64,000 bases of DNA from the NCBI GenBank assembly GCA_973895155.1, contig OZ316892.1, forward strand, positions 19,851,869-19,915,868. The letters are read 5' to 3'. Below, piece by piece: positions 3,739-41,345 of the stretch (position 1 is the stretch's first letter; the number at the start of each line of letters is the position of its first letter). Position numbers and translations under genes: made by a program. Source of the DNA: Marsupella aquatica. Its lineage: Eukaryota; Plantae; Marchantiophyta. The notes under the pieces are model-generated. The model saw nothing but the letters and a program-made list of their open reading frames with translations, was not told the origin of the DNA and did not search any database.

Positions 3739-3744
3739 TTTCAA

Positions 3745-4135: not shown

Positions 4136-4238
4136 AAAAGTAAGTAGTACCCAGATATCTAGGGATTTTTATGGCTGCACATTTGAGGGTGTCTATTTGC
4201 TATAGTATTTCTAATAAAACTCTCCTGTATGTTTACAG

Positions 4239-8188: not shown

Positions 8189-8289
8189 CTGCAAAACTGA
8201 AGCACCTCATTCTCAAAATCAAGAATTCAACAATTTGAATCAAACAAACTAACCAAAGACTCTTGCACTTTCTCACTCGACAGACTTTT

Positions 8290-8790: not shown

Positions 8791-9497
8791 CGAGTCCTGC
8801 TAGTGTGACAAACCATAATGACAACCAAAGGCAAACAAATAAAGGACAAAAGAACATCACAAGGTAGGAAACCCATAGTTACCTGCTTGATCTCTACAAC
8901 TAGTTCACAGTAGTGGCTCTTGTTTTCCGCCCTGATTTAGTTTGCTGCACATAAAACGATTTTCTATATTATTCAGTTTACAGCACCCAGAGAAAAACCT
9001 TCTTCCTTTTGCTATGGGTCTCTCACAAGAAGTTGCAATCTTTTCCTGGAGTTTGATGACTTGCGAGGAACAACTTGGGATTGGATTGCACTCCTGGACT
9101 GTGGAGGAGATGTTTCTCCTGCTTCAGTTTGAACAAGGCTCAACAGTTGCTTGAATGAAACATGAGAGCGAGACTCAGGAGTGAAGGGCAAGGTGCCAAG
9201 CTCAAGAGATGTCAATGGGGTACTGGTCACCTTGCTAGCTACTTCACTCTCCTGCTTCTGTTTCTTCCTCACATGCAGTCCGATGGCTGCTGTGGAATTG
9301 AACACTGGCATTTCAGGAGACTCATCCACAGGGGCACCCTGTTCATGCGCCACACTAGTGTGGTCCACATTGTTCAACAACACAGTTGCTTGGACCTCGG
9401 CTTGTTCCTGCACACACAATGACGACATTCACTTAATGGCCCAACTAAAAACTCAAACTGTCCAACTACCTAAACATGACCTGCAGGCCTAGTCTGG

Positions 9498-9845
9498 TTA
9501 TACACATACCACTGCTTGCGTGGACTGCATCTGTTGCAAAAGGTGACGACGTGTGCCCAATTGGGCACTGTTAGCCCCATATGTTGCCTTCAAATCCTGA
9601 ATATAGGAGCCTTCACCTGACGGCAGCTTGTCTACCGCTCTCTTTGGAAGACCCCAACTTCGAATCCAATCTTCACAAAAGGGTTCCCCACAAGCAAAGC
9701 AACAACTTGTCCTTGTTTTATCCCCCAACAAGGTAAATAAACAATGCGGATGATAGGCGTGGCCACAACTTGCTGGAACCCAATTGAAACAATGATACCC
9801 GTGGCAACAAACTGGACAATTACTCACGAACACTTCAGTTCCCAC
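9498..9845 (-). CDS. RING-finger exon of the transposon cargo gene
   Basis: CPVC-x13-CGHAYHPHC-x12-CFAC, a RING-H2-like spacing. Confidence 0.65.
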   Translation of the reverse strand: MGTEVFVSNCPVCCHGYHCFNWVPASCGHAYHPHCLFTLLGDKTRTSCCFACGEPFCEDWIRSWGLPKRAVDKLPSGEGSYIQDLKATYGANSAQLGTRRHLLQQMQSTQAVVCV

Positions 9846-10262
9846 TATCGCAGTTGATGTGGGAACAAATCAAGGCTGCAATGCTGGACATGGATTGGAC
9901 AACACAGGCTCCAAAATGGACAATTCAGCCTTTTGAGCTGCTGCAGCCAACTCCAAACGCTTCACATGTCCTTCCAACTGTGATTCCACAACTTTCAAAC
10001 GAGCCACCTTGTGTGGTAACTGTTCAAAGCGCTTCTTCCTGGTCTCAATGAGCTTCTCAAATGTAGCCATCCCCTTTAGGATAAATGACTCAGATTCCTT
10101 CAAAGCCTCCATGGCCTTGTTACCCTCCTCCAACTTCTGTTGCAGGATAACAACATAGCTTTCCTGCCCACCCCAAAAAATATATGCACACGACAACATT
10201 ATTTGCAGCTCGTCGTCAATGCATCAATGCCTCGTCCTGCTAAATTGAATCCAACATCTCAA

Positions 10263-11507
10263 CTAAACATATATATCCAGCCTACAGATAGTTTGATGGA
10301 CACAGGGACAGGTCTGACATTGTACCTCCTCATCTTGCTCTCCCTTGAGCTCCTCAAGCTCTATTTCCGTTGACATGTCATCATACAAGGTGTCTACGGC
10401 CTTCACTTTGATTCTCACATCTTGCAATTCTTGCTGTAGTTTCTGAAGTTGGTCCACTAGACCAGAGCTGAGTTTTGGATGATCCTTGTTTGCTGCCTCC
10501 AAGTCTTGCAGAGTCTTCTGAACCTTACTGATGCTCTCATGGGTGTCTCTAAGACTGCATTTGATCGTGACTATTTGCCCATCCAGAATAGCAAGCAAAA
10601 GACTTCTTGGCACTATAGGGACAACAGGAGAAATAGGCTTGGCAAAGAGAAGCGTTGTTGCGGGGGCAGAAAGGGCAGCCTCCAATGGTTTGGGATGTGC
10701 GCTCTCGTGTGCGCTTCCCTTGCTACCAAAATCCGCTCCTGAATCGGCTGTCCCCGGATGAGCTTTGTCCCCTGGCGCTTGATGCTTGATACAAATCTTT
10801 TTCCTAACCCGATTCTGAGTATCTTCACTAAATTCCTGAGGCACTGGTGGCAAATACAGAGGCAACCTCCTAACGCAAGGAGGCCCATCTGGCTTACCCT
10901 TGCCATCTCGCTCCCATTGGGCAATTTGCCCCTTCAGCTTCGACACCGCATACACACACCAGTCCACCTTTCGCCTTTGGATCCTTTCTGCATATGCCCC
11001 TTTGATGAAAGTGAAAGACAAGAATCCATTCACTGGTGCATCGTAACCATCCACGACTTGGGATAGCTGCAAAACCTCCTCAATTGGGAGGCCCACACAG
11101 AGACTCAACTTATACCCATTCCTGTCTTTCTCTCCAAACACTTCGGCCAATTGCTCCTTGGAAATGTCTTTGATCTTATGAGGATTAACACCTTCATTTG
11201 GAAGACCAAATGTGACATGGAAATACTCTGCGTCCTTCACATAATCTTTAGGATCCCATGGCTCTAGAGGCGGCTCCACCTTAGTCTTTGGTTTTGAAGT
11301 TTTGATACTCTCTACAAGAGCTGGAGAGTCGGGAGAAGCACGATCTGTAGCTTGGGAGACATACGTGGTTGGTTTGCTAGTGGACCAGACTCTGCTACGA
11401 GGGAGAACAGGGTCTGGGACTGTAACTATCTCCATTTCTCCTAGCTCAAGAGTAGAAGTTCTAGGAGCTTCTGGATTATCAGTTGAGGCATCCATGACGG
11501 CATTCAA
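10263..11507 (-). CDS. Transposon accessory protein with a plant-mobile-domain-like region and coiled coil
   Basis: 414-aa ORF with FGLPNEG...NGY...C...AER...VDW motifs, then a heptad-rich segment; resembles the ORF at 51965. Confidence 0.55.
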   Translation of the reverse strand: MNAVMDASTDNPEAPRTSTLELGEMEIVTVPDPVLPRSRVWSTSKPTTYVSQATDRASPDSPALVESIKTSKPKTKVEPPLEPWDPKDYVKDAEYFHVTFGLPNEGVNPHKIKDISKEQLAEVFGEKDRNGYKLSLCVGLPIEEVLQLSQVVDGYDAPVNGFLSFTFIKGAYAERIQRRKVDWCVYAVSKLKGQIAQWERDGKGKPDGPPCVRRLPLYLPPVPQEFSEDTQNRVRKKICIKHQAPGDKAHPGTADSGADFGSKGSAHESAHPKPLEAALSAPATTLLFAKPISPVVPIVPRSLLLAILDGQIVTIKCSLRDTHESISKVQKTLQDLEAANKDHPKLSSGLVDQLQKLQQELQDVRIKVKAVDTLYDDMSTEIELEELKGEQDEEVQCQTCPCVHQTICRLDIYV

Positions 11508-13383
11508 AAATACGCTAGTACAGAGGAAAGTTGTGGTGAAAACTCAAAGTATAAGCAAGCGTATCGGGCCAACACCTACATTATTACCTCAGGACTGCTG
11601 CGGATTGAAAATGGATGTTGGTTGGATTCAATCACCAACGAATCGGGTGAAATTTCCTCCGCTGGCTTCAAACAAACCGCCCGCTCGGGCTACATGCATT
11701 ACACAATGGAATTAGAAGGTTGCATAATTACTCCAACCAATGCAGCTGACGGATAATCCCGTGTTAATAGCACGCGAACAGATAGGGTTACATACGACGG
11801 TCTATCGAAAAGTCAGCTAAGGAATCAAAAGAATGCTAGCCATCATTTTTGAGAGTTTGATCATCATGTGCAAACCAAACCTATGTCACCGACCCGTTGA
11901 AGTGCTCAGATGTGAAAAAAAAATGAAATCGCTTCCGGAAGTAAGTTGGCCGTCCTCCACTAGCTTCCCTTTGTTGCCAATAAACTCTGCTGCGATGAGA
12001 GCTCTTGGGCTGTAATTATCTCAATGGTTTGAATGGGCCGGGCCAACATGGACAATCTTGCAATGCGCAACAAAATACCTACTCGTTTGCAATTTCTCGT
12101 CGCTCTCTCTTCCTGCCCCAACACTCGAACACTACTGATTTTGGCTATGGACCTCAAGCTGCTTGGTGTCCACCATGAAACACTTCGTAAAATTTGATAG
12201 GCTCAGGCATAAAACTCTCAATAATACTCCTTTGTCCTCGAGTCCTTACTACTGTTGAGACTATCGCGCCAAAGTTGGAAGGACTTGGAGTCCTTGTTTT
12301 CAAAATGTCCTGGCCGGCGGGGATTGCGAGGACATTTATTGTAGGTTTCCAAGACTTCCGAGTCCTTTTTTTGAAAAGTAAACGACGGCTACTCGCCTCG
12401 AGGACATTAAACACATCATAAGTACTCTATATGAGGATACGAGTGCAAGCTTTACTAGGGTCCTACTAAATCCAAAAAAGTTCATTTAATGGAATCAGTT
12501 CACCAGTTCAAATCTAGCCTTTGATATACGTATCCTCAATCTTGGCCATTGAGGGATATGTTGCACATTTAATGCAAAATGGCAAGGACTCGAGTCCTTT
12601 TTGTGGAGAAAAAAGGAGAAAAATGGTAGTCCTCAATCATGCAATGGACCTTAGTTATATAGCTACAAGTACTACAGGGGAATTTACAAACGACAGCAAA
12701 TAGATAACAGTAACAGGAAACAGATTCTGGTACCAGTTAAAAGGAGCTGTTACCAGTGAACAGTGTTTGGATGGTCGTGAACAGTTATCTTAAAAAAAGG
12801 TCTCAAAATCTCCATTTGAAAGTACAAGAATAGAAAACAAAACCACCAAACCCTCGTGATAAATAAAAGAACAACAAGGAAACAATTTTTTGAAACATAA
12901 AAGACGGCTGCCAATTGAGATACACAAAATCCAAGACAAATACAAGTAGAAAAGAAAGGCTGGAAAAAACATTCGCATATATTATCGCAAAATAGAAAAC
13001 GCGGTCGGCTTAAGTGATACAAAATGCAGTTATCAACATCAACAATCTGGCCTAAAAATCCCATCCATGAAGTCACGGTCAACACCGTCGGAGGTTTTCA
13101 ACTAATACATGAACAGCGCTCGGCGCTAGCCAAAAATTAACTAGAAAACTAGTCGTTTCTTGGAGACAAGATGCGTCCAAACCCAGACAACATAGTCAAG
13201 ATCCATTCCCTCCCACAAAATCCGTTGTCATTTCAATAGCGCCCGGCGCTAGCCAACCTAAATAGTAGACAATCGGGAAAACTCTAACGCCAGAGCTGAG
13301 GTCGACTTCAATGCCACAAAATCCGGAAAACTTTAGCAGCGCCCGGCGCTAGCTTAAAGCGATCAGCAAAACAAAATTTCCAT

Positions 13384-13845
13384 CTAGCTTTCCGAGTTGC
13401 AATCATCATCCACTCCTGCTGCTTCTCTCCGCCGATCTTTCTTGAAGCCGAGACCATGCAAACGAACGTATCCCTCTGAAGGTCCTCGACGAACAGCCCT
13501 CGTAAAATGTTCATTAGGAATATTACTGTCCTTAAAATCAACTCGCCCAAACATTTCTTGTACTCTTCGATCGATTGGGAGTACCCCATCAACAAGAACT
13601 CCCGGGTGAGACAAAAACCGACTAGAGAACGGAGGCGCAGGGGAATCGACAATCCAAGGGATGTTCTTCTCTCCAGGACTAATAGCCTCATCATACGGGA
13701 GAGCATGACGATTCCGAAAAGTGGAAGTTGCAGTTTCTTCAGTCTCCATCCGCAATTCAAAAGAGCTGAAATGGCTCTCTTCCGGACGCACACGAGAAGG
13801 ACGAAAAGCTGCCTCCCAATCCATTGGCTCATACTGACTCGCCAT
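13384..13845 (-). CDS. Small hypothetical MULE accessory protein (153 aa)
   Basis: ATG-initiated open frame inside the MULE, with element palindromes just downstream and a tandem array upstream; no recognised domain. Confidence 0.4.
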   Translation of the reverse strand: MASQYEPMDWEAAFRPSRVRPEESHFSSFELRMETEETATSTFRNRHALPYDEAISPGEKNIPWIVDSPAPPFSSRFLSHPGVLVDGVLPIDRRVQEMFGRVDFKDSNIPNEHFTRAVRRGPSEGYVRLHGLGFKKDRRREAAGVDDDCNSES

Positions 13846-13989
13846 GTTTCAAAGACCCCGATCTAATATGTAACCTCTCCTCCCGTAAGAATGTCATCCG
13901 CGAGTGCTATAGCCGACAAAGGTCAAAGAAAGGTCTGCAAAGACTAAGACGCCAGATAAAGGTCCGCGTACACTACCATTCTGAAACGA

Positions 13990-14320
13990 CCATCAAACTA
14001 TCATCATCCTGTTCTATTGCCTCCCGAAACTATCTTCACCTTGGTAACAAGTATCGTCCCGTTCTATCGTCTTCCCGAAACAAAGTCTTCCCAAACGAAC
14101 TATCATCCCGTTCTATCATCACGTTCTATCGTCCTCCTGAAACAAAGTCTCCCCTCCCGTTCTATCGTCCCGTTCTATCGTCCTCCCGAAACTATCATCG
14201 TCCTCAACTATCGACGTCCCCAACTCTCGTCGTCCCGAACAAACCTAAACTGAAACTATAGTCGTCCCTTCCGCCCGGTCCCTAAACTATGGAATCATCG
14301 TCCCGAAACTATGGTCCCCA
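13990..14320. repeat. Degenerate tandem repeat (ctatcgtcccgtt / cccgaaactat units)
   Basis: Directly visible short repeats upstream of the 153-aa ORF. Confidence 0.7.
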
Positions 14321-14591
14321 ACGGCTTTCCGACGACTGACTAAAGAACACAATCCAAATGGCAGTTGGTATCCAATGACGATGACCGTTGACAGGAAACG
14401 ACAAAGACTAAACGGCCATTTAGAGATTCCATTTGGCGAGCGCCAGGCGCTTGTAAAGAACAGAAGTCAAAAGTAATCAACAAGTAGAGAGAAATCAACA
14501 ATTTAAAAGGACCCTCAACAGAGGGAAATAATACAGATGTTACAAGCGCCGGGTGCTGCTAAAAGATTTAGCGTCAACTACCCACTACTTC

Positions 14592-17500
14592 TCACGGTTC
14601 CGAAGATTCTGAGTTGGAACCAGAATCTGTACTCTGGGATCTGTCCGTGGACACAACCTCATCATCTACGTACTGGCTGCGGGAGAAGTCATCAACATAA
14701 GGATGTTTAATGAACTTTCGGTCAACACCCCTTCGTAACCGAAGACCTTTGTTTTCCCAACAAAGTGTCCTTGCACTTTCTGCTTTCCTTGCGGCTTTCT
14801 CTGCATAGGAGGGAAGAACAAACGGTTTTTCCGGTGTTTCTACGTTGTGTCTTGCGATCTTCCTCCGCAGTTTGAATTGTCTCCTTGCATTCCACTCTGA
14901 GCTGATATAACAAAGTCCATTTTGTAAGGCGCCTTTTCCCAAAACAACAAAAGAAATGTTATGAATTGACGGGAATGGAGAAAGAAGCTTACAAGTTTAT
15001 GAATATAACTCGGAAGAGTCATCACTATCGGTTTCATCTGCAGTTGCACGACGCTCTCCCTTTTCCTCCTTGGAGTTTCTTGTACCTTGTTCCTCTCCAC
15101 CTTCACTCGATTCATCATCAGAATCAAAATTGAGAACCGACCGAAGCTTATCTCTTTTTTTTCTGTCGGCAGTAGGAACAGGTGGAGGTAACACTGCAAT
15201 CTCTTTGGGAGACAACAAATCCATGAAAACCTTTGAAGCGGTTTCAATAAATTCTTTTCGGTGTTCTATCCCGAGTACAAATCGTCCAGAGAAGTCGCTA
15301 GCAATGTAAGAGCTTCCAACCCCAGCAGTCCAATCCATAAAAATATCACGAGGCCGTGTGATAAGCTCTATAACAGATTGCATAAAACCCACAGACAGAT
15401 GAGCATTTCCAGCAAACTCCATTTGCGGGAATGGATCTGATTTGAGCGAAGAGAGTCCGATCAAATTGGTAACCAAAGGGTCCTCACTGATGGACAGCGG
15501 CCAAAATTTGGGGTCTTTGGGAATTTTACATTTCCCATTAATTCGGCCAAATATGTCAAGCCTGAGGGTAAACATCTCTCGGTCTGTCTTTGCCGCATAC
15601 ATCGGGTCAGACATCACAATATTATGCGAGCATATACACTGAAATTTCCTTGACTCCTGACAGGCAGCAATGACTTGCGACATGGGATCGTACTCCCCAT
15701 TGTGTAGAATTACAAGGAACCCATCATCTGATAAAAATGGATCCATGGATTTGAAAAAAGATCTAGCCATTGAGTGATCTGGAATGTTCCATTTAGGAAC
15801 CTTCTTATCAATGATAGATGGTTTGAACCCGGTCAGTAGGTAAATGAAGCCGGCATCCATCCAAACGATCTTACTTTTCCCCCCCGAACAACTCCCTTCT
15901 CTTTAAATCCCAACTTAACGAGGTCTTTTCCCCATTTCTCCACATCACTAACCCACTCGGCTTCTCCTCCTTGTTGAACGTCGAGTCAAAAAATTCAGAA
16001 AGGCTTGTCTCAACCATGCAATGGCGAGACACAGTTGTTTTGAAGTTTCCAACTTCACGTTGGAAACCAGAAGCTATAACACTCTCCCTTAAAGATTGTC
16101 CACCTTTGACAGCTCTCTTTCGTTTCTTCCTGGTACTCGTGGCGTCGATAGGAACTATAACCTTCCCTTTGTCGACTGGAGTAATGGGGTCCGATCGAGC
16201 TCCCGTGTTTGCCTCGGAAACTTCAGGTGTAGCATCCTTTTTCGTATCTCCCGTTCCCACCGTATTAGACTTCCTCCCTCCTAAAATATAACCAGGTCGT
16301 AGTTAGGATAAGTACTTTTAAAGTATTGAAAGAAGCTAGCGCCTGGTGCTAACCAAATGCAATTCACTTAAGTCGCAACCGAAGCCTAATAACCAAGAAA
16401 GAGAATACCCTCAACAGAATATTTTTTGCCAGCGCCTGGCGCTGGCAAAATCATGGATAGCAATACTTACTCTTCTTTCCAGATTTAGTAGACTCGCTCG
16501 GTGCTGCTAGCTCCGCTTTGGCTTTCGCGCGAGGTTTGCGACTCCGGTCCACATGCACAACAGTTGTTTCACAGATAGTTTGCAAGTTTATGGCAGACTT
16601 GTCTACATCGTCAAGTAGACCCTACTTCATGTCGGACACAAGTTTTGCTGGCATCTGAGACTTTGAAAGCTTATGGAAGGCATCTTTTTCCCTTTGATCA
16701 AAAGAAGAATCCCATCTATCTGTATCTAGATACCAGGGGCAGTGAGTTCTCTCCCATTCTGTCATTGGTCTCGGAGGAAATATGCCCTCCATGGGGTACA
16801 TAGAGTACAAATCAGCCAAGGCATCATCTTCACTTATTGAAATCCACTTCATAAAAGCTGCAGGATATGCCCAGAAGTAATCAGGTTTGGTTACCTCCAT
16901 GTGCATGTAGAACCTATACACAAACCTCTTCGCTTGCTTTTGGTTTCTCTGGGTGTAATCTTCTTTGTCAGGGTACTTTGAAGGCCACATAGTGTGAAAG
17001 AACTTATTCTTCACGGAATCACCAAATCTCTTGAATTCATTTGTAACAAACTGAACTAGATCATCAAACGAACTACAATTCCACTCTTCCAATCTATTCG
17101 CGGGCATGGTTTGCTCAACTTCACGTAGACATGAATGTAACATGCCAGCAGCAATTCCCTCCACACTATTCCAAGTGATCCAAGTGTGGCACCACTGTTT
17201 GACTGGATCATCGTTAACACTTGCTGGGTGAAAAAACTGTCTCCGCAGCTCAGGATTGCAATGTGCCACAAGTAAAGTGCTTCGTAACTTTGGGTCTAGA
17301 GCATAAACAGCGGTGAACAATCGTGCGCGGTCCATCGTACATACAACGGTGTCAGGCTTCTTCTCTCTCTTGTTTCTCTCTGTGATAGCATACATTTCTG
17401 CACATGTACTGAGGAAATCTTCAAATTCAGGACTTAATAAGGGCGTAATTTTTGAAGACTTCACTGCCCAATCTTTGGTTGCGTCTTTCATCATGGCCGC

Positions 17501-18685
17501 ATGCCGTTTTGAAATCTCGTCCGCCGACCATGGACTCCCTTGAGCCTCCGCTGCCTCCATGTTGAGTTTGAATTGATGCGAGTACGACTTTATCTTATTC
17601 TCACAAAGAATGTAAACAAGTGCTTCTTGTGGCATCTTCTTCGTATACCATGACCCCTTCCAAGTTTTCAGCCGGGAATGCTTTCAAACTTCTTGAAATT
17701 ACCCGGGTCAATCAGTTTACTGTAATACAAAAGGTCATGCGCCAGAATTCGTTTGATTCTGTCCGCATCCAGGATCCAGGAAGGCTCTACAACTGCTTGG
17801 CCAAGCCTACACGAACAAACGTTGAGAGTAAGAGTCAATGAAAAACAATTCATGTATAAGCAGCGCCGAGCGCTAGTAAATACAGCACTCGCAAGATTTA
17901 AGGAAAGAACTGGAAATCATGAGAACTTACTGATTCACGGTGTGCATAGCTGCCTCAATTTCAATGAGAGATCCCTTGTCTCCTTTAAATATTGTACAGA
18001 GCACACGAGGATGATATTTTGGATTTTCCGGGTTCTCCTCTGTTACAAGCGTCCAGGAGTACAGCCTGTGATTTCCATCGAATACAGAGAACATCTTATC
18101 CTTCAAGACGAGAAAATCCGGGTCAGCCTCGCATTCAGCATCAAACTTCTCGTTCTCCAATTGCCATATTGGATCCCATGAATCACGAATGTCTTGGGTA
18201 CAGGTCAGAACAATTCCGTTCTCATCCGTTGGCTGCACATAGAAACGCATCCCTATCGAAGAGTTGTAACCCATACTACGAAAAGAGTCTTTCAGCTTCT
18301 CGATGGAAGAGCTGTCTTTCTGCAGAGTACGAACCACCTCCATGTGAACCAATCGACATAGAGGGATTCAAGGCGGTTCCTTGTCAAATCCACGAGAATC
18401 CCTTCCAAAAGACATGACATGTTTCGAAATGAGATCAGTCTCAGCAAGCGCAAAATCCGCAACATCCTGGATCGCAATTGTGTCTACGTTGTCCATCTTT
18501 CTTCGCAAAGGATTTGGACCCAAAACACCACTGACAGAAGTGAACGGCAACAACTTTGAGGAATGAGTTACACGACGTGTATAGACTGAACCAGTAAACG
18601 AAGACTGCAAAGATTCAAAATAAGCTCGCTCCTGGTCAGGAACCGCACTATACCCTCTGGAAGAAGAGGGGAATACCTCCATCAT
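14592..18685 (-). pseudogene. Multi-exon ParB-like plus beta-class N4/N6 DNA methyltransferase-like gene
   Basis: IPLCRL..MEVVR and VFDGNHR (ParB/Srx-like). KIVWMDAGF occupies the DPPY position, followed by FLSDDGFLVI and IELITRPRDIFMDWTAGVGSSYIASDFSGRFVLGIE (SAM-binding motif I). GT-AG introns near 17808-17929 and 16282-16469. Lesions: TGA at 18368, frameshift near 17690, TAG at 16622, extra base in the run at 15879-15885. Confidence 0.75.
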
Positions 18686-18940
18686 CTTCCTTCTAGAAGC
18701 GTACGAACTATCGTACAATGAAATTATGGAACTATAATCATCTCTGAACGTGTAATATATTCTAGCGGGAGGATGACATAACCTAGAGGAAAGCCATTAG
18801 CTCTGATGTTTGGCGGTTTCCAAGGTCTGTATACGGAAGGTTTAATTACCAAAATCAAATGGTAGAAGATGCGTAACACACACGGAAGTCATAAGTTACC
18901 GTTGAATGTTACCGTTAAAGACATTTCCTAACATCATATC

Positions 18941-19370
18941 AATACTAGCGCCGGGCGCTAGCATTAATGATGACCATCAAGGTGAACAATTTAGAGTATG
19001 CTTATAATAGCGCCCGACGCTAGTATAAATTGGAAGAAATTTAGAGGTCTTTTTTGAAGGAGCTATGACATAAATTTTGGCCTTTCCACTCCCATATTTT
19101 ATTAAAGTATCCTTCAGTACATCGTTTACGGAGAAATATTTCTTAAATGTAATACTAGCGCCCGGCGCTAGTATAAATGTTCATTTATCATCCATAATCC
19201 ATCAAAACCATCCTTTGAAGGCACCATTTATTCCCAATTACCACCTGGTATGTGATCATAATGTTCATTTTCAGGGAATTTATTCTATACTAGCGTCGGG
19301 CGCTAGTTTGGAATGTCGAGATTTCAGACACATTTTTAGTGGCGTATTTTAGTTAGCGCCAGGCGCTACT
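18941..19370. promoter_or_regulatory. Cluster of five AGCGCCNGGCGCT palindromes in the divergent intergenic region
   Basis: Copies at 18947, 19009, 19157, 19292 and 19355, several with extended arms (atactagcgcccggcgctagtat); a regulatory role is inferred. Confidence 0.6.
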
Positions 19371-19581
19371 AAAATTTGACAATACCTTGTCATATCTTAT
19401 GGTCTGTTTGAGTAAGGTTGGTGATCTTTTTAGCAATATGTTTGTGTCTGACATCCAGACTTCTCGGGGAAAAAACGACAAAAATCATTTATGGTGCCAA
19501 CGGATCCTCCATCGTCAATGTTTTATGTCGTATACAAACGGATCGGTTAACATCAAATTCCCAGGTTCGACAGATATAAGC

Positions 19582-21926
19582 TGTCACGCGATTGACATGG
19601 GTCTTAACACCAAAAACGTCACTATGGGTGCCAAAACCATCTCCTTGTACCTGAGGATCACGAAGGGATGTTGTGAATGCCGGTAAACACCAGTTTATGC
19701 CCTTAACACCAGACTATCATAGCAAGACTCTATCACACATCACCCAAGCTCAATCCCAAGGAACCAAGGTTGGGGATCAGATCTGCGCTCATGATAGTTC
19801 TGGTGAGAAGGGGTCTTCATATCGGGCCGGTACACACAGGGCCTAGCGCTACGGTGCGCATAGGTCTATACATATGCTTACTGTCATAGGTATGTTTCTA
19901 TTCCGCCGCCGGAATGTACCCATAAACCAGTGACTCCTGACTGATTCCCGGCTTAGGGACTTCTAAGCCATTGCCCCACCACTCTGCCATTCCACTCTCA
20001 ACAATCAGAGCTATGACAGTCCTCACCCAGCCCGCTTCAATGCACCCGGTACACCTCTCAGTGGCGCTGCTAGTTCCATCATACACTCAGATTGCCTCAC
20101 ACACACACACATCCATGAGAGAAATGAGGCCTGAGAGGAAAACTCAATTAGATTCAAAGATGTGCACAATAGTTCACTGAGAACACTTGATCCGAACACT
20201 AGGGCCGAAGGCTGTCTCCTCCAGATTGTGACGTGCTTGCCCTGCAAGCCCCGTGCTTGCCATGCAAGCTCAATCCTGAACTCAACCTCCTTCACTGCAC
20301 TTCATTCTTGGGGGCACATACAGATCTCACACCTCCAATTCAGAACATCAAGTTATGCATGCATAGTTGACTCGACTTCAAAGCTGGTACCAGGCCTAAC
20401 GGCGATCTATCCCAGACAGCAATGAGGCCCGGCCTCACGCTTGCCCTGCAAGCTCAGCTCTGGCCATAGATCCCTTAGTGCTCTCCACCAGACAAAGGCC
20501 GGGACTCCCCATGGGTCACGTAGCCTTGCCAGACTGAACTGTAAATGCTCCTCCTGCTGCCCCTTAATCAGTACCTCAGCCTCCCTAATGTGCCCACCGC
20601 AAATCGAATTGAAATCCTCCCCACAGTTTACAATCACCAATACATCACCTATCACCAAGGCTCTGTATCGGGGGAAAAGAACCCAGTTGTGCTGCCCACT
20701 AGAAAGAGCCACAATCCAGCTCGCAAACCTAGCAACCCATTGCTGTGAAGCTTGGCTGATTACTCCCTGAGTAATAGCACAACCAAGCTCTCCCCAACAC
20801 GCAGCGTCCAAGTCCAGCCTTGCTTGCACAGAGCTCCTCCCCGCTACTCAGTCTAAGTGAGATCACACAACTGAAGTCCCCCCCTCTCTACCGGGGGGCT
20901 GCTCTATATACTCTCTCATTGAGCCCAAATGGGTGGATGCTACGCTGCTGGAGCCCCATCCCAGCCCTAACAGAGCCGCCACTATCTCTAACTACTGAAC
21001 CCTAACTCGCAACTTTATTTCTATCTCGAATTGGCTATGTACTTCGGATTCGGCCCTCCTCCATGGTTTTCGCGAGCTTACGCCTTCTCTCCTGATTTCT
21101 GTATTCAACCATTTGCTGCGTGGATAACAGCGTTGGAAGCGACTTGAGCTCCTCTTTCCAACGAGGTCAATTATAGCCGATTTGGTCAAATACACAGAGA
21201 GTTATGCCCCCGTAACCGAGAGGGGGTACTCACTGTTGCGCTAACCCGAGTTACATAGCTAACCCGAGTTCGGCTAACCTAGCTATCCTATCTAACCCGA
21301 GTAGAGCTAACCCGTGGTCTCGGGTTAGGCCGTTACCCGCTATCCGCTATCCTAGCCTAAGCTGAGCCCGAACCCGAGCTTACCTATGCTAACCTGACCC
21401 CGAGTTAAGTCTAACCCGGGATCAATCTAATCCGAACCCGGGTTAAGCCTAAGCTGAAGCCGTGCTTACCTGAGCTAAGCTGAAGCCGTGCTGACCTAAG
21501 CTAAGCTGAAGCCGTGCTGACCTGAGCTAAGCTGAAGCCGTGCTCACATAAGCTAAGCCGTGGTCGAGCTTGGGTTAACCCGAAACTGAAGCCGAATCCG
21601 CTAATTCCGGTCACAAGTTAACCCGTCACACTAATCAGGCCGTATCTTTCTTAATACACCTCCGTTTCCTGAGTGTTTTATATCGATTTTACTCGCCTTG
21701 ACCAGATCTTTCCAATGCTCTTTACAGATCCGGATTTGGTGACATATTGAAAGAGATATGGTCGTCGACCACCTGCGACATAGCTTTTATTTCCCTACTC
21801 TTAACGCCATGATTGCCCTTATTCTTGCCATCTTGCTAATTGTTATGCAATATCAATAGCTACTCCTTGCATACAGCAACCTACTTAATCAGATTACAAA
21901 ATAAGGACCATGTCATTGGCGTCACA
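19582..21926. mobile_element. Solo LTR (2345 bp) nested in the MULE
   Basis: TGTCACGC...GCGTCACA termini with a perfect 5-bp TSD TAAGC (19577-19581 / 21927-21931); no retroelement coding domains. Confidence 0.85.
21240..21600. repeat. Tandem repeats within the solo LTR (taacccga units; 26-bp gctaagctgaagccgtgctgacctra)
   Basis: Directly visible. Confidence 0.8.
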
Positions 21927-21995
21927 TAAGCTGAACAATACCATGAACTTTTCTTCTTTCAAACGCTATAGCCCTCGGTTTTGTTTTTGTTCACC

Positions 21996-24900
21996 ATGTC
22001 TCGGTCTATCGTTCTTTCTCGATTCGGTTCTGAAGATATTGTGACTATCCCCGTCCCCATGGAAGATACGTACAAGCAAGTCCAGGAGAGGTATCTCTAC
22101 GGGAGATTTGATTTGAAGATGAATGACATTGAGGCCATTGTTCGAGAGCTCGAATCCATTGATGATATCGAGGATGCTGCAACGTTCAATGTCGATGACA
22201 GTGAACGGTTTTGGCATCTCTACGCAGGGATCTCGTACTCGGTTCGTTTAAGACAGCATGCAGGACTGTCCAGTTTCCCGCCGGTACCATGTGATGTGGT
22301 TGAGATTTCTTCAAGTGAGGATGGAGATCATACTCTAAGTCCACCGTCGAAGAAGAAAAGCCCGCTCCCTGTTATCGTGAAAGTTGAGACTCCGGGAAGC
22401 TCTAAGCAGTTGGAGGTCGTGTACCGGCGCAGTGCAATGGATACGTTACTCAAATCAACTGGTCATAGTGAGTTGTCACGGTTCATATCAGCGGGTGATT
22501 TCAAGCATGAACAAGTGTCTTGTCTGCCAACTAAGTACAATGGTAACGTCGTGTTTGAGTTGCCGCCCATTGATAAGATGCTCTCTAAAGGCTCTAGGCT
22601 TAGGGACATGGATCGTGCCAAAGATTGTTACATTTGGACACGCATATTTCCAACAACTGCAACTGTTCATCCTAAAAACCTTTGGCAGTTTGGGAAGGTT
22701 ACCTGTACGGGATTCATTGAATGCAGGAACAAGTCCTGCGACTATTTCCAAAGGAAGAAGAAGGCAAATGCTAAGGCATGGCAGGGTACTCCAAAGCTCA
22801 GTGGTCAGTATGCTGTGGGATCTTTCATCGAAGAGGGAGGTGTTGTTTGTCATTACTGCGAACAGATTCCTTTTTGTGTGAAGTACTGCCCTGCCCGTTT
22901 GTTTTACATGTACCCCAAAGTATTACTTGATGCGGAAACATGTAGTCATATGTCCCGCCTGGCAATTCATATAGGTGAGCACAACCATCCAGGTAGAAAA
23001 ACCTTCTGTAGGAGTGCGGAGAAGATAGCTGAGGATCTAATTAAAAAAAACATGAAGCCAATCCTCTGTCAAAACCGGCAGGGATCTTGAATTCTGCTAC
23101 AGGGTCCTTAGTGAAATCTCTCTGCGAACATGTTGACGACATGGTCGATATCGAAGAAACTGAAATATGGAAGTCTCTGATGGTCCTTTCCACTCCGCAG
23201 AAGTTTGCATCTCTTTGTCGGAGCGTTAGGATAGACCAAAAAGGTTGGGGTGAATTAGATTTTCTCTCGCAAATGCAGAGGAGGATTCATGTGTCGTTTC
23301 TCCAGAGGTATTTGCTTCCAGGTCAGGGATGTCAGAACGATAGGCCTCACATCTTTAAAATGACCGTGAAAGGTCATGGTTCCGGTGTGGATCTTTTGAG
23401 GCAGATGCAACCAGGTGGAAGACTCGAAGGAGCCTGGGTAAGTTTCGATGTGATGCAGCGTGTCACCACGGATTGGTTTACTTTCAGCGCACACGTCTAC
23501 GACCACAATTTCCGTGCACTGTGTACAATTTTCACATGCGAGTTGAAAGGTGAAGACACTGAGTCTTTTGAAAAGGCATGGAGAGTGATGATTGAGGTTT
23601 GCAAAGAAAATGAACTTCAGGAGGTTGTCATCCAAGGATTTATGGCCGACAATGCACAAGCTGGATGGAATGCAGTGCGAAATGTTTTTTTTGGTGGACA
23701 CCCGGACCCGGAGAGGGAGCGCTTTGATGCATTTCACTTTTATCAATCTTTTCATCGTCATTCCAAGGAAGGAGTACTGGAAGAATGTCAATCGGAGCAT
23801 CGGAGACTTTGGGAGAAACTGAGAAATGCTCCATCATTTGTGGCAGCATACCGGGTGTCCTGAGAGATTGTTGTGTGGTGGCAATCAGGAAATCGTGTCC
23901 CCAGAAAGCTGAAGATGCTGCAAAGCTGGATATCTTGGTGGGTTGTTCGCTGGCGCCAGTGGGGCAATTTTATTCGAGTGGTAAGGCATCCATCTATCTA
24001 GACTGTAATGTTCATCAACTTCATATTAGCGCCAGGCGCTGGTTATTTTCTCCATACGCGTCAAAACAAGTAGTACAAGAAATTGAAGCCAATATGTAGT
24101 TAGAATTCAGTATTAAACATTGAAATTGTATTTCAGGCTTGTTCTACATATTTATGTTGCCAGCGCCGGGCGCTGGTAATAGAATACTACTTATGGTTGA
24201 CATTTTCGTATGGCAGAGCAAAAGTGCTGAGGAAGGTGCCTTGATCCCCAACTGTACAGAGTCAGAATCAAGGCATGCGTCCATGAAAGCCTCGGCTACA
24301 AAGAAAAAGGTCGGTCTTTATGAAGCTTGCGAAGTTGACCAAAACCGTGCTCTGTCTCAAGTTGCAGGATATAGTGCATACCGTAAAGGCTTGAACCGGG
24401 GGAAGGGGCCAACTATATGGGAATTGGCGTTCCGTTCCGCCGATCAAGCAGGTTCGCCAAGATTGTTTGAAGAAGCGACTAATATGCTTCTATCTAACGC
24501 AGCAGAATTCGATTTGGAAAGAAGTACTCCCCTGAATGGAGATATAATGACGAAGTCAATGAAGAGGAAGGGACATGCAACTGGGACTGTCTCTCCACAA
24601 GATTCCCATTGGCATGACACCGTTCTAACAACCACACCAAATACTCGTGGTTTGAAAAGGAAGAACCTGAACATAACTGACTTTTCTTCTATTCCCTCAA
24701 GTTCTGATCATCCTGTCACAAAGGCGGTGAATCTCTCAGGTATGGTCACATCAGAGAGTGATACTGATTCACTGGACTATACTCCTCAAACAACCCGAGC
24801 AACAAGATCCTCAAAACCTCCGCTCAGTGCCCAGCAGCACTTCAGATCAACTTCCACGCACGATTGTGCTAGAGAAGGATGTCCCTCCGGGGCAGTGGCA

Positions 24901-25748
24901 GTTGCGACGGACATCGAAGTATGGAGCAGGTCCGCAATGCAATGGTACACTGAATGGGAGTTTGGATCGCGATGAGTGTCGAAATCGTATCAAGAAGGTT
25001 GGCTTCCATTCGTCTGAAGGTGTTGTCGGAATTGTCGTGAAGGGCCATCGTCTCTTTAGGGGCGAACCCATCTCCGAAATGATTTGGTTTTGCCCGAACC
25101 AAGCATGTTACAAGAGTCATCCGCGTTGTGGTGTTCAGAAGCTTCCTCCTTTTCCTGACATTTTGCCTGTTCTGAAGGGTACGAGCCTGTCTCCTTCTGA
25201 AATTACATTCCTGGAAGAGCAAGGACTTGTCTTAGCGCGAACAACAGGATTGAGTCGATCTGCGCCATCTGCTTTTGACCTCAGGATAAATATTAACGTG
25301 TTCCCAGAAACAATAAGGTTTTTGGAGCCGAATCTCCGACTTGGTAGTCGGAATGGGAGGAACTCAAGGCCTCGGTCTAATCTCACTATGGGTCACACGA
25401 AGCGAATGGAGTCTGCACGACAAGAAGTGATGAGTTTGGATGGGGAATGGAATGTTCAGACCGGAAATGCTTTTGGAAAGCAATTTCGAATTCGAACCCA
25501 TGAGAACCATCGATCACCAAGCACATACTTCGGCCAAAGTCTGGAGCCGAATCCCCGCTTGCTCTTGTGAAGACTTCTTCCTCCGACATTCGCGTGGCAA
25601 GTCGTACATGCCTTGCAAACATCTATACTAGGTGTACATAAATGTTTTCAAACTTGAGATTGAGGAGTCGACTCTTTGTAGCCAACCTATTTTGACTTTA
25701 GGCGAAGTCAGGCTTGTGCTGGAGAGGCAGAACTTGAATGGCTTATGA
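21996..25748 (+). pseudogene. Mutator-type transposase with a GCM/WRKY-like Zn domain, DDE core and C-terminal SWIM finger
   Basis: CTGFIECRNKSC...CHYC...C...HIGEHNHP; FDVMQRV; FMADNAQAGWNAVRNVF; DAFHFYQS; PNCTESESRH; CSCEDF...PCKHLY. Intron at 23981-24216. Frameshifts near 23045, 24770 and 25530; stops at 23861 and 25629. Confidence 0.8.
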
Positions 25749-27300
25749 GAGAGATCGAAACTGCCCAATAGGTCGTCGTTCAATATAACGGTTATTCCCT
25801 ATTTTGTCTTTTTCCAACGGATATTTTAGTTGTTTTATTGAGACTTTGTTGGTTAGCGCCGGGCGCTGGTTCTAGGAAACCGGATATTCATTGCTTCATT
25901 ATGTACGTGCATTGTGGAAGAATGACCTCTTGTTTTATTTAAAATGTGTAAGTTGATTAAATTGTCTACTGTCTTCAAAGCCTCGAGGATGTGATTTGTC
26001 ATTTGTTTGTGACGTTACAAGGTCCATTTAATCAACTCCTTTAGATTGGGTTGATTTGGACTCCACGATTGACATGTGCTATGGTGGGTCCCACTCTAAG
26101 GGTCACTATTTGGCGATGAAAATAGATTGATTTGCATGAATGTTTCTTTAGGCACACTCCTAATACCATGTTTTTTATCTTCTACAATAAATTGTTGTGT
26201 CAATGGAGGATTGATAGTACACTTCATCCATCGGATGGCACAAAATAATTGTTTGTTTTAAACTTTATTGCCCCCCGAAAAATTATGCCATTAGAGTGGT
26301 GGATATGCACCTTAGAGTGGTGGATATGCACGTTATGGTTTAGGCAAAACTGGTAACAGGGACAAGCTTACTAGTAACAGGTACAATTTCCCTGTTAACA
26401 GAAAATAAACCCCTGGTAACAGGTTTTCTGTTTTCTGTTTTCTGTCATGGCTATCATACCCGTACTATATGTGTCTAATATGTCATGTTATCACTTTAAA
26501 TTTAGTGACACTACAAGTTGTAAATGTAATTTGGTTATGATTTCAATTCTAGTCATATAACTAGTATTAAAAATTGACACAGTATCTTTAAGACTCAAAA
26601 TCTAGTCATATAGTGGCAAGGGCTATATAGTTTCTACATCAGGATTTAGGATCCATCCCTTTCAACAGTGTGTCATGATGATTTCATTGCAATGTTTAAA
26701 CACCATTGTTTTCTGCACTGTCTGTTTCATCATTGGTTCATTGTTGAATGGACTGACGTTGATTGGTCTAAAATTGTGATGACTTGTATTAGTGTTGTAT
26801 GCGTGTTGAAACATTGATGGTTTACTAATTGCAGTTTAGACGATGAAAAGCATTATAGAAGCATTGCTGAAAATATGGACAATGATTTAGTAATTTTTCA
26901 GTATCACATATTCAATGAATTCCCTCAGTTTTTCATTGTCTATTCATTGCATATTACCCTTAGATATGTTGTGCAATGTTTTCACATTGATACATTATGA
27001 GCATTTCAGTATTGAACAATTCCATTTTCATTATAACATATCCATGGGTGCATTGTAAGAATAATATAGATTCATTGATGACACTTCATGGTTGCGCTGT
27101 TAATTAATTGAGGTTTAGTTGTTGGGGTTAGACTTGTATATTTGTTGTTGTCTTTTTAACTTTTCATTGTGTTTTCATTGCATATTACCCTCTCATATGT
27201 GACACAATGTTTATATACTGATACAGTATTTAGTTTTTAGTGTGGAATGGTCCACTCTTTCCAAGGTTGAATTGCAAATGCATTGTTTAAAGGTCATCTT

Positions 27301-27706: not shown

Positions 27707-29489
27707 TCAGAACTTAAACCTATTCAAGAGGAATTCTCCTGCCTCGTGCTCATCCACTCCATAATGAGGCACAAGATGAACTACACTTAGAATGTTGGCT
27801 ACTTCTAACACATCATATGCTGCTAGTCTCCTCCTGCTAGAGGTCCCTGAGTGGCCTCCTATCTCAGTCCTATCCACCACTAGCTTTAGGATCAAGCACC
27901 CAGTAGTCCTCTCTGGTCTTGTTTGACTATTATACCACCTCACTAAAGCCATGTCCCGGGTGGTTTTATCTCCACTGCTAGTGGTCACTGGACAAGTGAA
28001 CAGGAGTCGTAGTTGGGCATACCATGTCAAGGGCTCATCCCCAACTTTCTCCATCTGTATGGCAACATCACTGAAGTAAGGGGCACCATGAAAACTCGGG
28101 GTGGCCCTGCCTGTCATGGGCCAATCCGCAAATCTATCACCCACTCCTGCTGCAATGGCCACCCCTGTCTTTACTTCGAGAGTCTGATGCAATCAATTGA
28201 AACCCTCATCAGATATGGAGGTGTCTAGTAAAGATGACCATGCAGCTAAGCAAGTTCTTAAACCTTATTCACAACTACTTACAAGTCACAAGTTGCTCAC
28301 CTCAATGGTCTGCAAATCATTAATGACACAATAACCTTGCAAAGATGTCTTCAAATGCAACGATATCTCTGGTTGTGTAGTCAAGACCTCTTTACCGCTA
28401 AGAGGGATATCAGTTATCTCCCTCTGCAACCAGTCCATATGGAAACGTAGTCTTGTGCCCATGAGAACATTAGACCCTGTTGCCACAGCCTGCCATTCAC
28501 ATTACATCAGTTATAAGTCGACGAATAGAATGCATTGCATTACAGATATCAAACCAATTATATTTTCAATGGATAATTCACCCCCTAAGCACCTTACCTT
28601 GTCTAACGCAGTGAATCGATCATCTGCCTTATCAACCTCTGAAATGGAGGTAGCATTTTTTTGGCTAAGAGCTAGTAGCCTTCGGTGGTGGTTAGTCATT
28701 TGCTTGGCGAATTCCTTTTTGTTGCTGGCTCTATATGGCACTTTCATCAACAAAATGTGCAAATGTTCATACAGATTAGTCGAATACTCCACTGGAATCC
28801 CTGACCGCCGAATAGAATCAGAGAGGTGAGCCATTGCGTGGACCTTTACAGTATCAAATTCTGACTTTTGATACTTTCCTAACACCACTATCAACTTTCT
28901 CACCATCCTGCACAACATCATGTGCAAATTATTAATAATTCTGTCTTATTTCATAACAACTTGGCAGCCTAATATAATTAGTGAGCAATAATAGAATGAA
29001 CTATCCAGTAAAAAGCAAGAAGTACTTACACTACCATCAGCCGATCCATTTCTGCCAGAGTCTCCTCAGTGTGCACAGCTTTCCGGAAAGCCAAAGTATA
29101 CCAATCCCACATAGAGATCACAACTTGCAACACAGGGGTCGGGTAAACTCCAAGCATCACTGGAATTAGAACCTGAAACACACACCTATGTTCAAATGCC
29201 TGGAAAGTGGCGTTAGAAGTAAAATATCCAGTCCTTCCCTTGCACGAGGGAAGTCTGAACTCTGGATACCGGTGATGCTCTGACACCCAAGCCAACCTCC
29301 GGTCCAATACCTGTAATGCTTTTCGTTTGAATGTGACAGCCGGCACTTCAACTGCCATGACTTTCAAGATCCCAATTAGGGTTTTAAACAAACCTAAATC
29401 AAATTGGTGCATCTTGTCAGGATGCACACATCTATACGGGTTTCCTAGAATCGTATCCCCACCAAGGAAACCCCAAAGTGCACACTGCC

Positions 29490-29527
<38 letters not shown>

Positions 29528-31108
29528 TAAGTATTTACGTTCACTTTGATAATTCAAAAGAATAAATGATAAATTTGCAAAATAGAACTAGTGATGATGC
29601 AAATTCAGATATCATAAACTTTGTACCTGAATGGGATGGACAGAGTTACTCCTGGACAATTCATCCATCACAGCCACAGTTCCTGATACTTCATTCATCT
29701 CCTCATATAGAGCACTCATGTTTTCTTGAGTTCGATATTCAAGCCTTGCTGTAACTGTGCTCAATTGACCTCGAGGACAGTGGCATGTGCTACATGGAAA
29801 ACTGCATCTATTGGAGTCAAAAGTGCACGTTACTTTGCAGCTCTCTGGATGGTCACCGATGTAGCCATATAGGAGTGGGAATACCCATTTCTGTGAACCT
29901 GATGGATCCTCCAACGGCAAGCCCCTGTTGCATCACATGCCAATGAACAATCAATGTCTTGGCACAAATGTAATATAAAATGGATCTAAAAAATATATCA
30001 GCAACCACATAGATAGTAATTTTGGTTATAGGAAATAACAGAGAAATTAGGTTAAAGAAATAATGACTTACGTAAAACTCAATGCCTTGAGTGGTGCCAA
30101 CAAGATGCTCAAACACTTGTGCAAAAATGAGCACTTGAGCCTAGTTGGATTTCTAGAGTTCAACAATTCCTGATCACATGGTCCATAAGTGGGCAAAATG
30201 GCTAACAAGGCATGGCCAAGCTCCTCCCGCCATCCAGCACATTCAATGTTGGCTAAGGACATCATCAATGGATATCCAGAGACTCTCTGGTTATTAGACA
30301 GGGAAGTTTGATCTGAATACAAGATGATTGCAGCAATGGCTCCACCTGGACACCTCTGTTGTACGAGAGTCTGCAGCAAACACCAACAAACTAAGTGTCC
30401 AACCTCATCCAGGAACAAAAAGAAAAGCTCAATTGAATAGATAAGTACAGTATGTTTCCTTACATGCATCTATCTCCACCAGTGCCCTGTTTCCGGAGTA
30501 CTGTAGTGGTCTGTTGCCTCAGCTTCAGCGGGAAGCAGTTTGAAGTCTTTCTTGTTGTTGGAATTTGAAAACAAAGTAGACAACACTTCCACTGGATCTT
30601 GAAAATGCAGCACCAACTCGTGCACATGCTGGTCTTTCTCTCTAACCACCGCTTGCTTCCATTCAATACCATGATCACTTGCCATCTTTTCTTCATATGC
30701 GAGAAGGTCACTTACATTTTTCACATAAACATCTTCTCTATTAAAATTTGGGTGAAAAAGCATACCCAAAAACCTTCTGGTGTCCTTGATAGACATCCCT
30801 AGAGTATTTCTACATTGCCTTAAAAAGGCCACTAGGTGAAATGTTGAATCAAACCTGTCCTTTGGATCACTGGCTCTACAGAAATTGCTTACTTGATCTT
30901 GAGGAGCATCAATCATGTGGATCAATTCGTCAGCAGTTTGTTGCACTTCTAGTGGAGAAGAAGATTCCCCAACATAGAATGGGGGAAATGGCTCAACCTC
31001 CTTCTGGGCTAATGCTAATTTGCATGATCTATTGGTACTCTTGTGAGAAGCGAGCCCACCATTGGTTTTAAATCCTTTGCAGCCACAGATGTCACAGTCG
31101 TATGTCAT
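27707..31108 (-). pseudogene. Plavaka-type transposase, multi-exon, with an N-terminal C2H2-like finger
   Basis: CDIC...LASH, FQDPVEVLSTLF, YSTPETGHWW, IILYSDQT, YPLMMSLANI, YIGDHPE, HPDKMHQFDLGLF, KVHAMAHLSDSIRRSG..YSTNLYEHLH; premature TAG at 30470. Confidence 0.82.
29489..29522. repeat. (CA)n microsatellite in a Plavaka intron
   Basis: Directly visible. Confidence 0.95.
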
Positions 31109-34153: not shown

Positions 34154-34265
34154 TAGATTTTTGGCGCTGCTGCCGGGGAACGAATTGGAAGTAATTGAAA
34201 CTCAGACAGTGAATGCCACTTGTAGTGAAGGATTTTAAGAGCTTAGAAGGGAGAATTTTGGCCTC

Positions 34266-41308: not shown

Positions 41309-41345
41309 GCTTGTGAGGGCACTGCGCCGTTTGAAGGGGGGATTA

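Follow-up and report, generated by a model that had tools for sequence, protein, structure and literature searches.

A decayed candidate Mutator-like element in a liverwort, with palindromes in its non-coding DNA and an accessory gene for a predicted ParB- and methylase-fold protein

The element, its ends and its copy family

We analysed a 64-kb window of the liverwort Marsupella aquatica (contig OZ316892.1, positions 19,851,869 to 19,915,868 of the forward strand); the window is this whole stretch, and all positions below are counted from its first letter. It holds a transposon at 12677-26461 with two genes standing back to back, a candidate Mutator-like transposase and an accessory gene on the minus strand whose predicted product joins a ParB-type fold to a methylase-type fold (Table 1). 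The non-coding DNA of the element is studded with a palindrome that the accessory protein may bind. An earlier note, made from the letters alone, had described an element bounded by a target-site duplication, and the ends agree with this. The flanking 8-bp duplication matches at 7 of 8 bases, and the terminal inverted repeats are degenerate but real, with 25 of the first 37 bases identical and an alignment score of 66 over the terminal 120 nt against 26.5 +/- 7.6 for shuffles (0 of 1000 shuffles as high). The family was surveyed through contigs of public sequencing runs (X1, X2, X3 and X5) aligned to the window, and contigs of other copies start at 12680 (X2) and stop at 26438 (X1). The outer ends given in the note thus stand, but its span also takes in 19582-21926, which is a nested solo long terminal repeat (LTR) of about 2.3 kb, foreign to the element. 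Its depth in X1 is about 30,000, 15-20 times that of the flanking element. Because the solo LTR is a later insertion skipped by contigs of other copies, the element proper measures about 11.4 kb. The solo LTR also has a 35-nt stretch (89%) in common with a repeat at 56281-56315.

Contigs merge near-identical copies, and read depth gives no copy number, only a profile along the element. In X1 this profile is even, with depths of 567 at the left end, 604 at the methylase exon, 562 in the exon 2/3 region, 621 in the transposase intron region and 604 at the right end. In X2 the ends and the accessory gene lie at 366-429 and a transposase piece at 284, again in near-identical contigs. In all, four runs have contigs over both the accessory gene and the transposase at matching depth. 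Because near-identical contigs occur at matching depth along the element, the data fit a multi-copy family in which ends, accessory gene and transposase move as one unit, and so agree with the note's proposal of a transposon family that carries the module together with its transposase. The accessory gene was partly present in six of the seven listed runs and at least half of its words in four, from two studies and two organisms; the best of these runs may come from the same source as the window. Runs X5 and X6, in which its share is small, were left aside for any reading of habitat or host.

The duplications that Mutator and other Mutator-like (MULE) elements leave at their target sites are about 8-11 bp long. 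Read by eye, the transposase shows candidate residues D, D, H and E and closes with a SWIM-like part, and these motifs together with the 8-bp duplication make it a candidate Mutator-like enzyme. MULE transposases have WRKY-GCM1 domains at the N-terminus and SWIM domains at the C-terminus (PMC1702500). The motifs seen by eye are in keeping with the label of a GCM-MULE-SWIM transposase in the note, whereas no profile matched any part of that label, and there was no MULE or IS256 match in Pfam, NCBIfam, PHROGs or plasmid tblastn. The ratio of observed to expected CpG is 0.75 and 0.78 in the element's genes against 0.53-0.64 in their neighbours; age and coding constraint explain this equally well, and the ratio was left unused.

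Table 1. Features of the element in the window, from left to right; exon and intron models of both genes are predictions from the DNA letters.
Feature	Position	Strand	Details	Basis
Left target-site duplication	12669-12676	+	GTACTACA	7/8 against right copy
Left imperfect terminal inverted repeat	12677-12796	+	Short internal repeats	Shuffle test; X2 contig start at 12680
Left subterminal palindromes	13115-14557	.	Five, at 13115, 13238, 13338, 14439, 14545	Left subterminal region
154-codon open frame	13384-13848	-	ATG at 13845; between palindromes; candidate third gene	List of open reading frames
Accessory exon 4	14592-14901	-	Short conserved LPxYAE motif, acidic tail, stop	Splice sites
Accessory exon 3	15010-16280	-	Basic linker and beta-class methyltransferase-fold domain (~15180-15960); motif IV position 15831-15842; motif I 15315-15335; frameshifts near 15859 and 15958	Predicted
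Accessory intron 2	16281-16470	-	Two palindromes (16338, 16431)	Splice signals
Accessory exon 2	16471-17806	-	Middle region, candidate DNA-recognition part; frameshift near 17674; stop 16622-16624	Predicted
Accessory intron 1	17807-17930	-	One palindrome (17862)	Position apparently conserved among homologues
Accessory exon 1	17931-18685	-	ParB/Srx-fold domain 17931-18367; DGNHR 18065-18079; stop 18368-18370	Predicted
Divergent promoter region	18686-19581	.	Palindromes 18947, 19009, 19157, 19292, 19355	Motif scan
Nested solo LTR	19582-21926	.	TG...CA; 5-bp duplication TAAGC on both sides	Skipped by contigs of X1, X2, X5
Transposase exon 1	21996-23980	+	Cys/His-rich N-terminal domain; candidate D at 23447 and 23648; frameshift near 23042; stop 23861	By eye
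Transposase intron	23981-24216	+	Palindromes 24028, 24162	Predicted
Transposase exon 2	24217-25748	+	Candidate E near 24265; SWIM-like CxC..CxH ~25560-25622; several frameshifts, a stop	By eye
Right subterminal palindrome	25855-25867	.		Motif scan
Right imperfect terminal inverted repeat	26342-26461	-		Shuffle test; X1 contig end at 26438
Right target-site duplication	26462-26469	+	GTACTATA	7/8 against left copy

Palindromes and the accessory gene

The palindrome AGCGCCNGGCGCT, which the earlier note did not mention, occurs at 16 sites with at most one mismatch in the window, where 0.03 were expected and the maximum in 100 shuffles was 1. All 16 lie within the element and none in the other 50 kb. 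They are also all non-coding, the solo LTR and the predicted exons holding none (a model of uniform placement gives P about 1e-7, a rough figure that ignores codon constraint). The accessory gene has five beyond its 3' end and three within its introns; the divergent promoter holds another five, the intron of the transposase gene two and the right end of the element one. The wider consensus is about RCTAGCGCCNGGCGCTAGY between A/T-rich flanks, with a site size of 13-19 bp; the palindrome is rich in CG and contains CCNGG. Each of the six one-mismatch copies differs by C>T or G>A, and the one at 16338 is perfect in other copies. Apparent joints in the survey contigs link 23973 to 25846 (three runs) and 17808 to 18946 (X1, with a matching loose end in X2), with splice signals in the letters between. 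We take these joints, each known from one contig per run, to mark a diverged subfamily in which the palindrome persists in accessory intron 1 and in that of the transposase, where the other intron letters are unalignable. Other long joints, such as 13256-19282, were not taken as deletions because a shared motif can join unrelated contigs. Matches among viral contigs, in 85 stretches that almost always had a single site, were treated as chance.

The accessory gene comprises four predicted exons with 3669 coding nt (about 1,220 codons) and three GT-AG introns of 124, 190 and 108 nt, which agrees with the divergent, intron-containing gene of the earlier note. The position of intron 1 recurs among homologues, 19 of 24 of which stop at the same place after an MHxxN-type motif, the other five continuing into unalignable text. 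Exon 4 weakly matches the C-terminus of the Riccia protein P0070 (E 0.005). Loose contig ends with donor-like sequence were seen at 15577-15580 in X1, X2 and X3, and many homologues break there. A related subfamily appears to have an intron in the methylase domain that is absent from the subfamily of this element.

The note had called this copy pseudogenised, and its accessory gene indeed has five breaks, two stops and three frameshifts. At every one of them, 90-100% of the depth in X1 and X2 comes from copies that read differently. Because the breaks are private to this copy in both runs, we take this copy to be dead and the frames of the family to be open. Private changes in 15150-18720 are strongly biased, 23 of 27 being C>T or G>A, with 15 in CG context (260 sites), four in CHG (280) and four in CHH (1041). 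Because these changes are mostly C>T or G>A and most fall at CG, we infer that the host has placed 5-methylcytosine (5mC) on this copy.

A ParB/sulfiredoxin (Srx) fold is predicted in exon 1 from a model of the window's own ParB piece (145 residues, 25-row alignment), which reached a predicted local distance difference test score (pLDDT) of 89.9. In Foldseek, 31 of the 32 rows shown were ParB, Noc, KorB, PadC, sulfiredoxin, SbnI or serine kinase. A wide structure search of 48,161 chains ranked KorB first (Z 7.1, root-mean-square deviation (rmsd) 2.7, 87 aligned), followed by PadC (6.4) and sulfiredoxin (6.1). The DGNHR motif that the note had likened to ParB is identical in 25 of 25 aligned rows and fits the GxxR (Box II) nucleotide motif as described in PMC12704722. 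A search of the ParB profile against PDB sequences gave nothing meaningful, and a TRAPP match (E 0.0037) was judged chance. Beyond the survey contigs, a metagenome scan of 336 candidate stretches gave one locus of 1203 bases, too short for linkage. It holds a ParB exon (L001:490-1143) with a stop, DGNHQ replacing DGNHR and the same GT donor after it, and judging by its letters it is another dead copy. A scan of prokaryote genomes gave 0 loci. Two distant homologues, P0096 of the ParB part and P0075 of the methylase part, each come from a 7196-base European Nucleotide Archive contig, possibly one and the same, which weakly suggests that distant relatives have retained the fusion.

The methylase-fold domain and the rest of the window

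The methylase-fold homologue set comprises 78 proteins at E <= 0.001 from a representative library, of which 50 were aligned with the window piece. Names were looked up for 20 homologues, and the organisms given were the liverworts Calypogeia fissa (2) and Riccia sorocarpa (5); most of the others looked up are exon-sized pieces, and one, the bacterial P0053, has canonical DPPF domains. The named homologues point to a land plant, likely a liverwort, as host. No longer homologue of the methylase exon turned up among 2246 candidates, in a search that was insensitive, as a 568-aa homologue surfaced later. Of the profile and structure checks that the earlier note had proposed, profiles fell short, with the window exon matching PF01555 at E 4.4e-5 and 24 bits, below the curated cut-off of 26.7, and the ParB part matching no Pfam family, while both folds were found in models. 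For the methylase domain we modelled the homologue P0001, which is 41% identical to the window piece (pLDDT 84.7). The model matches CcrM (Foldseek E 3.7e-12; Z 18.6, rmsd 3.6, 215 aligned), and its next structural matches are BceJIV, HpyAVI, MboIIA, bdelloid N4CMT and PvuII. The fold is permuted, with the motif IV position preceding motif I. The permuted amino-methyltransferase of the note thus stands in its fold and motif order, whereas the motif at its catalytic position is degenerate. Both folds match prokaryotic-type structures, in line with its description of a prokaryote-type module.

Placing motif IV required care. When P0053 was added by MAFFT its motif IV region was misaligned, and hhalign matched motif I only; the register was therefore taken from the Riccia homologue P0044 and is settled because the DPPT of this protein falls on the DPPF of a phage enzyme when the two are aligned, and because it covers positions 2-212 of PF01555. 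By this register the motif in this element's family is YLPT, both in the contigs of other copies and in P0003, and a D-A-G-F-like motif beside a frameshift in the window's open frame is not motif IV. Of the 34 rows bearing a residue at position 4, 0 have Y, F or W there (T in 20, N in five, S in three, one H among the rest), and a pattern tally over 81 proteins matched 29, again with 0 aromatic at this position. Position 1 is D, N or S in seven of 34 rows. No tallied homologue row has TSPPY or SPPY. The motifs that bind S-adenosylmethionine (SAM) are better kept: in motif I, D is present in 26 of 30 rows, G in 23 of 28 and the last G in 26 of 27, with FxGxG appearing as W-x-x-G-x-G, and in motif II 25 of 31 rows have E or D.

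In a tree of 36 rows, rooted by two prokaryotic outgroups on a long branch (P0039 and P0065 were excluded as short, and P0008 is a spurious pattern match), eight aspartate-bearing rows, all from Riccia, fall outside a 26-row clade (one row spurious; support 99/99) that holds the window. We read this as a stepwise loss of motif IV, the aromatic first and the aspartate second. In N4CMT and CcrM the motif IV aspartate and aromatic bond and stack the target base (PMC10406627, PMC4738411), and in HP0593 a tyrosine-to-glycine change in motif IV abolished activity (PMC3036652). Because the aromatic is missing in all aligned homologues, canonical writing of N4-methylcytosine (4mC) or N6-methyladenine (6mA) by the accessory protein is unlikely. 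An inverted match between 3016-3044 and 15509-15537 was judged chance, since a tblastn search of the window for another methylase gene gave none.

Within the element, the 154-codon open frame has no Pfam match and lies downstream of short tandem repeats at 14052-14224. To the left of the element, about 3700-12676 looks like a second cut-and-paste element, judging from frames at 4218-6309 that resemble a transposase and show DFSENY and SDG motifs, which we take to be Sola-like (there was no Pfam match to confirm this), and from minus-strand frames at 7607-8206 and 10263-11543. It would have private non-coding motifs of its own, AAGGACT/AGTCCTT clustering at 3.7-4.1, 8.3-8.6 and 12.2-12.6 kb, with 47 of 59 window matches in 3-13 kb. 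To the right lie decayed Plavaka-like transposase pieces on the minus strand (27707-31117; PF18759, E 0.0014), a Ty3/Gypsy-type retrotransposon (32720-41640) with 300-nt repeats 98% alike, gag, reverse transcriptase, RNase H and integrase domains and in-frame stops, a 1008-codon frame with no Pfam match within 51911-64000, and a long inverted duplication (54714-56557 and 62183-64000, 87-98% alike).

Proposed role, rival explanations and known systems

Our preferred reading, to which we give about even odds (a probability of roughly 0.5), is that this is a decayed copy of a Mutator-like family whose second gene encodes a predicted ParB plus methylase-fold protein that would bind the family's own palindromes and keep the family transcribed, probably without methylating DNA. 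The best analogy is with VANC, an anti-silencing protein of VANDAL elements. VANDAL elements are Mutator-like. On this reading the accessory protein is VANC-like, and it would recognise its own element, bind it and counter silencing. The placement of the palindromes supports this anti-silencing reading because it matches the places where VANC targets lie, in introns, intergenic and terminal DNA, and the DNA-binding or anti-silencing role suggested in the earlier note gains support from it by analogy. Mechanistically, the accessory protein would bind a nucleotide triphosphate through the GxxR of DGNHR, with the ParB fold acting as a nucleotide switch, would load at the palindromes through its middle region, and would then spread on or occupy the element, in the manner of VANC on VANDAL and of VirB at virS. 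The element would in this way be kept active against host 5mC silencing. The methylase fold would serve as a non-catalytic module for SAM binding, DNA binding or dimerisation.

Several points weigh against this reading. This copy is methylated, by its pattern of decay, and dead although it carries the palindromes, and the open frames are known from merged contigs, among which there is no intact single copy. The structural evidence is indirect in places, as the methylase model is that of P0001 and its fold is carried over to the window protein by homology, and the match of the ParB model is middling (Z < 8), though its matches are of one family. Foldseek gave the ParB piece no match at E <= 0.001 (best E 0.053), no Pfam ParB family was found for any of the 25 members of the ParB part, and searches of Pfam and PDB sequences gave no match of any kind for the middle region, neither to the helix-turn-helix and C-terminal dimerisation domain of canonical ParB clamps nor to another domain that binds DNA. 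ParB folds lacking a DNA-binding domain (Srx, SerK, SbnI) are ATP-using enzymes rather than clamps (PMC12704722). Conservation of the SAM-binding motifs and of a family-specific PxWNxW would suit an unusual active enzyme as well. Finally, the transposase may bind the palindromes instead, by comparison with AtMu1 (bioRxiv 10.64898/2026.08.24.746577).

This last point leads to the first rival, in which the palindromes are sites of the transposase or of a complex of transposase and accessory protein, and the accessory protein aids transposition (end pairing, integration), as MURB does, instead of opposing silencing. The transposase has a Cys/His-rich N-terminal domain and palindromes stand in both subtermini; moreover, the AtMu1 transposase alone activates cognate copies in a sequence-specific manner (same preprint), and MURA binds its accessory protein MURB (PMC12973397). 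Yet 10 of the 16 palindromes, those of the introns and of the divergent promoter, are distant from the ends, the termini bear short repeats of their own that differ from the palindrome, and inverted-repeat arrays accompany ParB-type genes on unrelated red algal transposases (bioRxiv 10.1101/2025.02.11.637652), so we hold this explanation to be unlikely. About as doubtful is a bolder form of the preferred reading, in which a phage ParB-methylase fusion became, in liverwort-type transposons, a nucleotide-switched clamp that would load at the family's parS-like palindromes, spread along the element, and with its dead methylase protect CG-rich DNA against methylation by the host. If true, such a clamp would parallel the bacterial anti-silencer VirB in a eukaryote, and sequence-specific anti-silencing of transposons would have arisen a second time, independently, in land plants.

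Self-marking by an active, non-canonical amino-methyltransferase, writing 4mC or 6mA at or around the palindromes, was suggested in the earlier note and is weakened by the loss of motif IV. Its case includes a whole beta-class fold, conserved motif I and II residues, the second proline of motif IV (31 of 34) and the PxWNxW motif (N in 32 of 34, first W in 29 of 34), Riccia homologues with aspartate at position 1 (DLPS, DMPT, DPPT), a palindrome that is CG-rich and holds CCNGG, and the self-modification proposed for an Ectocarpus element (PMC12477816). Set against these are the absence of an aromatic at position 4 from all 34 aligned rows and from all 29 that matched the pattern, the lack of the aspartate as well throughout the window's clade, and a position 1 that varies (F, Y, A, C, S, R, T) in a manner unlike a catalytic residue; both lost residues touch the target base in N4CMT and CcrM (PMC10406627). 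We regard self-marking as improbable. Least probable is a conserved passenger with another activity (an NTP-using enzyme like Srx or SerK, where NTP is nucleoside triphosphate, or an RNA-binding protein) beside palindromes that are host factor sites or RNA hairpins, for although Srx, SerK and SbnI are among the structural matches, the middle region lacks a DNA-binding domain match in Pfam or PDB sequences and the motif could fold into a short hairpin with a 3-nt loop, the motif does not occur in the other 50 kb of the window, flanks each of the two genes on either side and persists where the intron around it has changed.

Earlier work had described a ParB-methylase gene on the strand opposite a transposase, and the earlier note overstated the novelty of the fusion. 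The Ectocarpus element Sola1-1_Ec32 has ParB-like and N4C/N6A methyltransferase domains in one protein on the strand opposite to its cut-and-paste transposase, and that protein was proposed to bind and modify its own element (PMC12477816). The two proteins, likened here by their descriptions, have 1104 aa in Ectocarpus and about 1,220 here. Sola1-1_Ec32 is a Sola-1 element of 21.5 kb with a 4-bp duplication in a brown alga, against a Mutator-like element of 11.4 kb with an 8-bp duplication in a land plant, and the accessible part of that account mentions neither target palindromes nor a loss of motif IV (PMC12477816). Related cargo is found in red algae, where Plavaka elements of Bostrychia and other species, with the accessory genes PAG2 and PAG3, and Mutators of Chondrus carry PF01555-type and ParB-type domains on DNA transposons, with inverted-repeat arrays beside the ParB gene and a proposal of self-binding (bioRxiv 10.1101/2025.02.11.637652). 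Unlike the single fusion and dispersed palindromes here, the Plavaka elements have separate genes (methylase with SET; ParB with 2-oxoglutarate oxygenase) and tandem arrays. In their accessible parts, both algal papers propose self-recognition and modification of the transposon by such cargo and do not mention a tested target. A literature search, in which most matches were judged without full text, found nothing on a land-plant element of this sort, on a lost motif IV or on the palindromes. This family adds a defined candidate site in 16 copies, open frames in other copies and a predicted non-catalytic methylase, so the idea of self-recognition becomes testable in a liverwort.

Among methyltransferases, CcrM, M.BceJIV, M1.HpyAVI, M.MboIIA, M.PvuII and bdelloid N4CMT are alike in their permuted fold and in the acidic and glycine residues of motifs I and II; those with the motif read have (D/S)PPY, against an xLPT-type motif without the aromatic here, at 12-18% identity. 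Retrotransposon DAMs retain the catalytic motif (bioRxiv 10.64898/2026.05.21.726589). The tie to the Marchantia enzyme DN4MT suggested in the note was not supported, as DN4MT1 is a host gene with TSPPY, unlike this transposon family, and on present evidence the origin of plant 4mC is left unexplained by it. Phage fusions of ParB with N6N4 methyltransferases, common in phages, share the ParB fold, PF01555 and GxxR and differ in being prokaryotic and intronless (PMC12704722).

On the side of function, VANC binds a family-specific motif that lies, as here, in introns, intergenic and terminal non-coding DNA of VANDAL elements in Arabidopsis, and lifts silencing (PMC5735166). VANC differs from the accessory protein, and the motifs it binds measure 8-9 bp, lack the symmetry of a palindrome and are arrayed in one orientation; its anti-silencing was shown (PMC5735166), and that of the accessory protein is proposed. 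In Pfam scans the exons matched no VANC-type family, no direct comparison with VANC being made. VirB is alike as a ParB-fold anti-silencer loaded at specific sites, and unlike in being prokaryotic, without introns and shown to be a clamp dependent on cytidine triphosphate (PMC10770331). If our reading is true, plant transposons would have a sequence-specific anti-silencing protein besides VANC, and nucleotide switches of the ParB type would act on eukaryotic chromatin.

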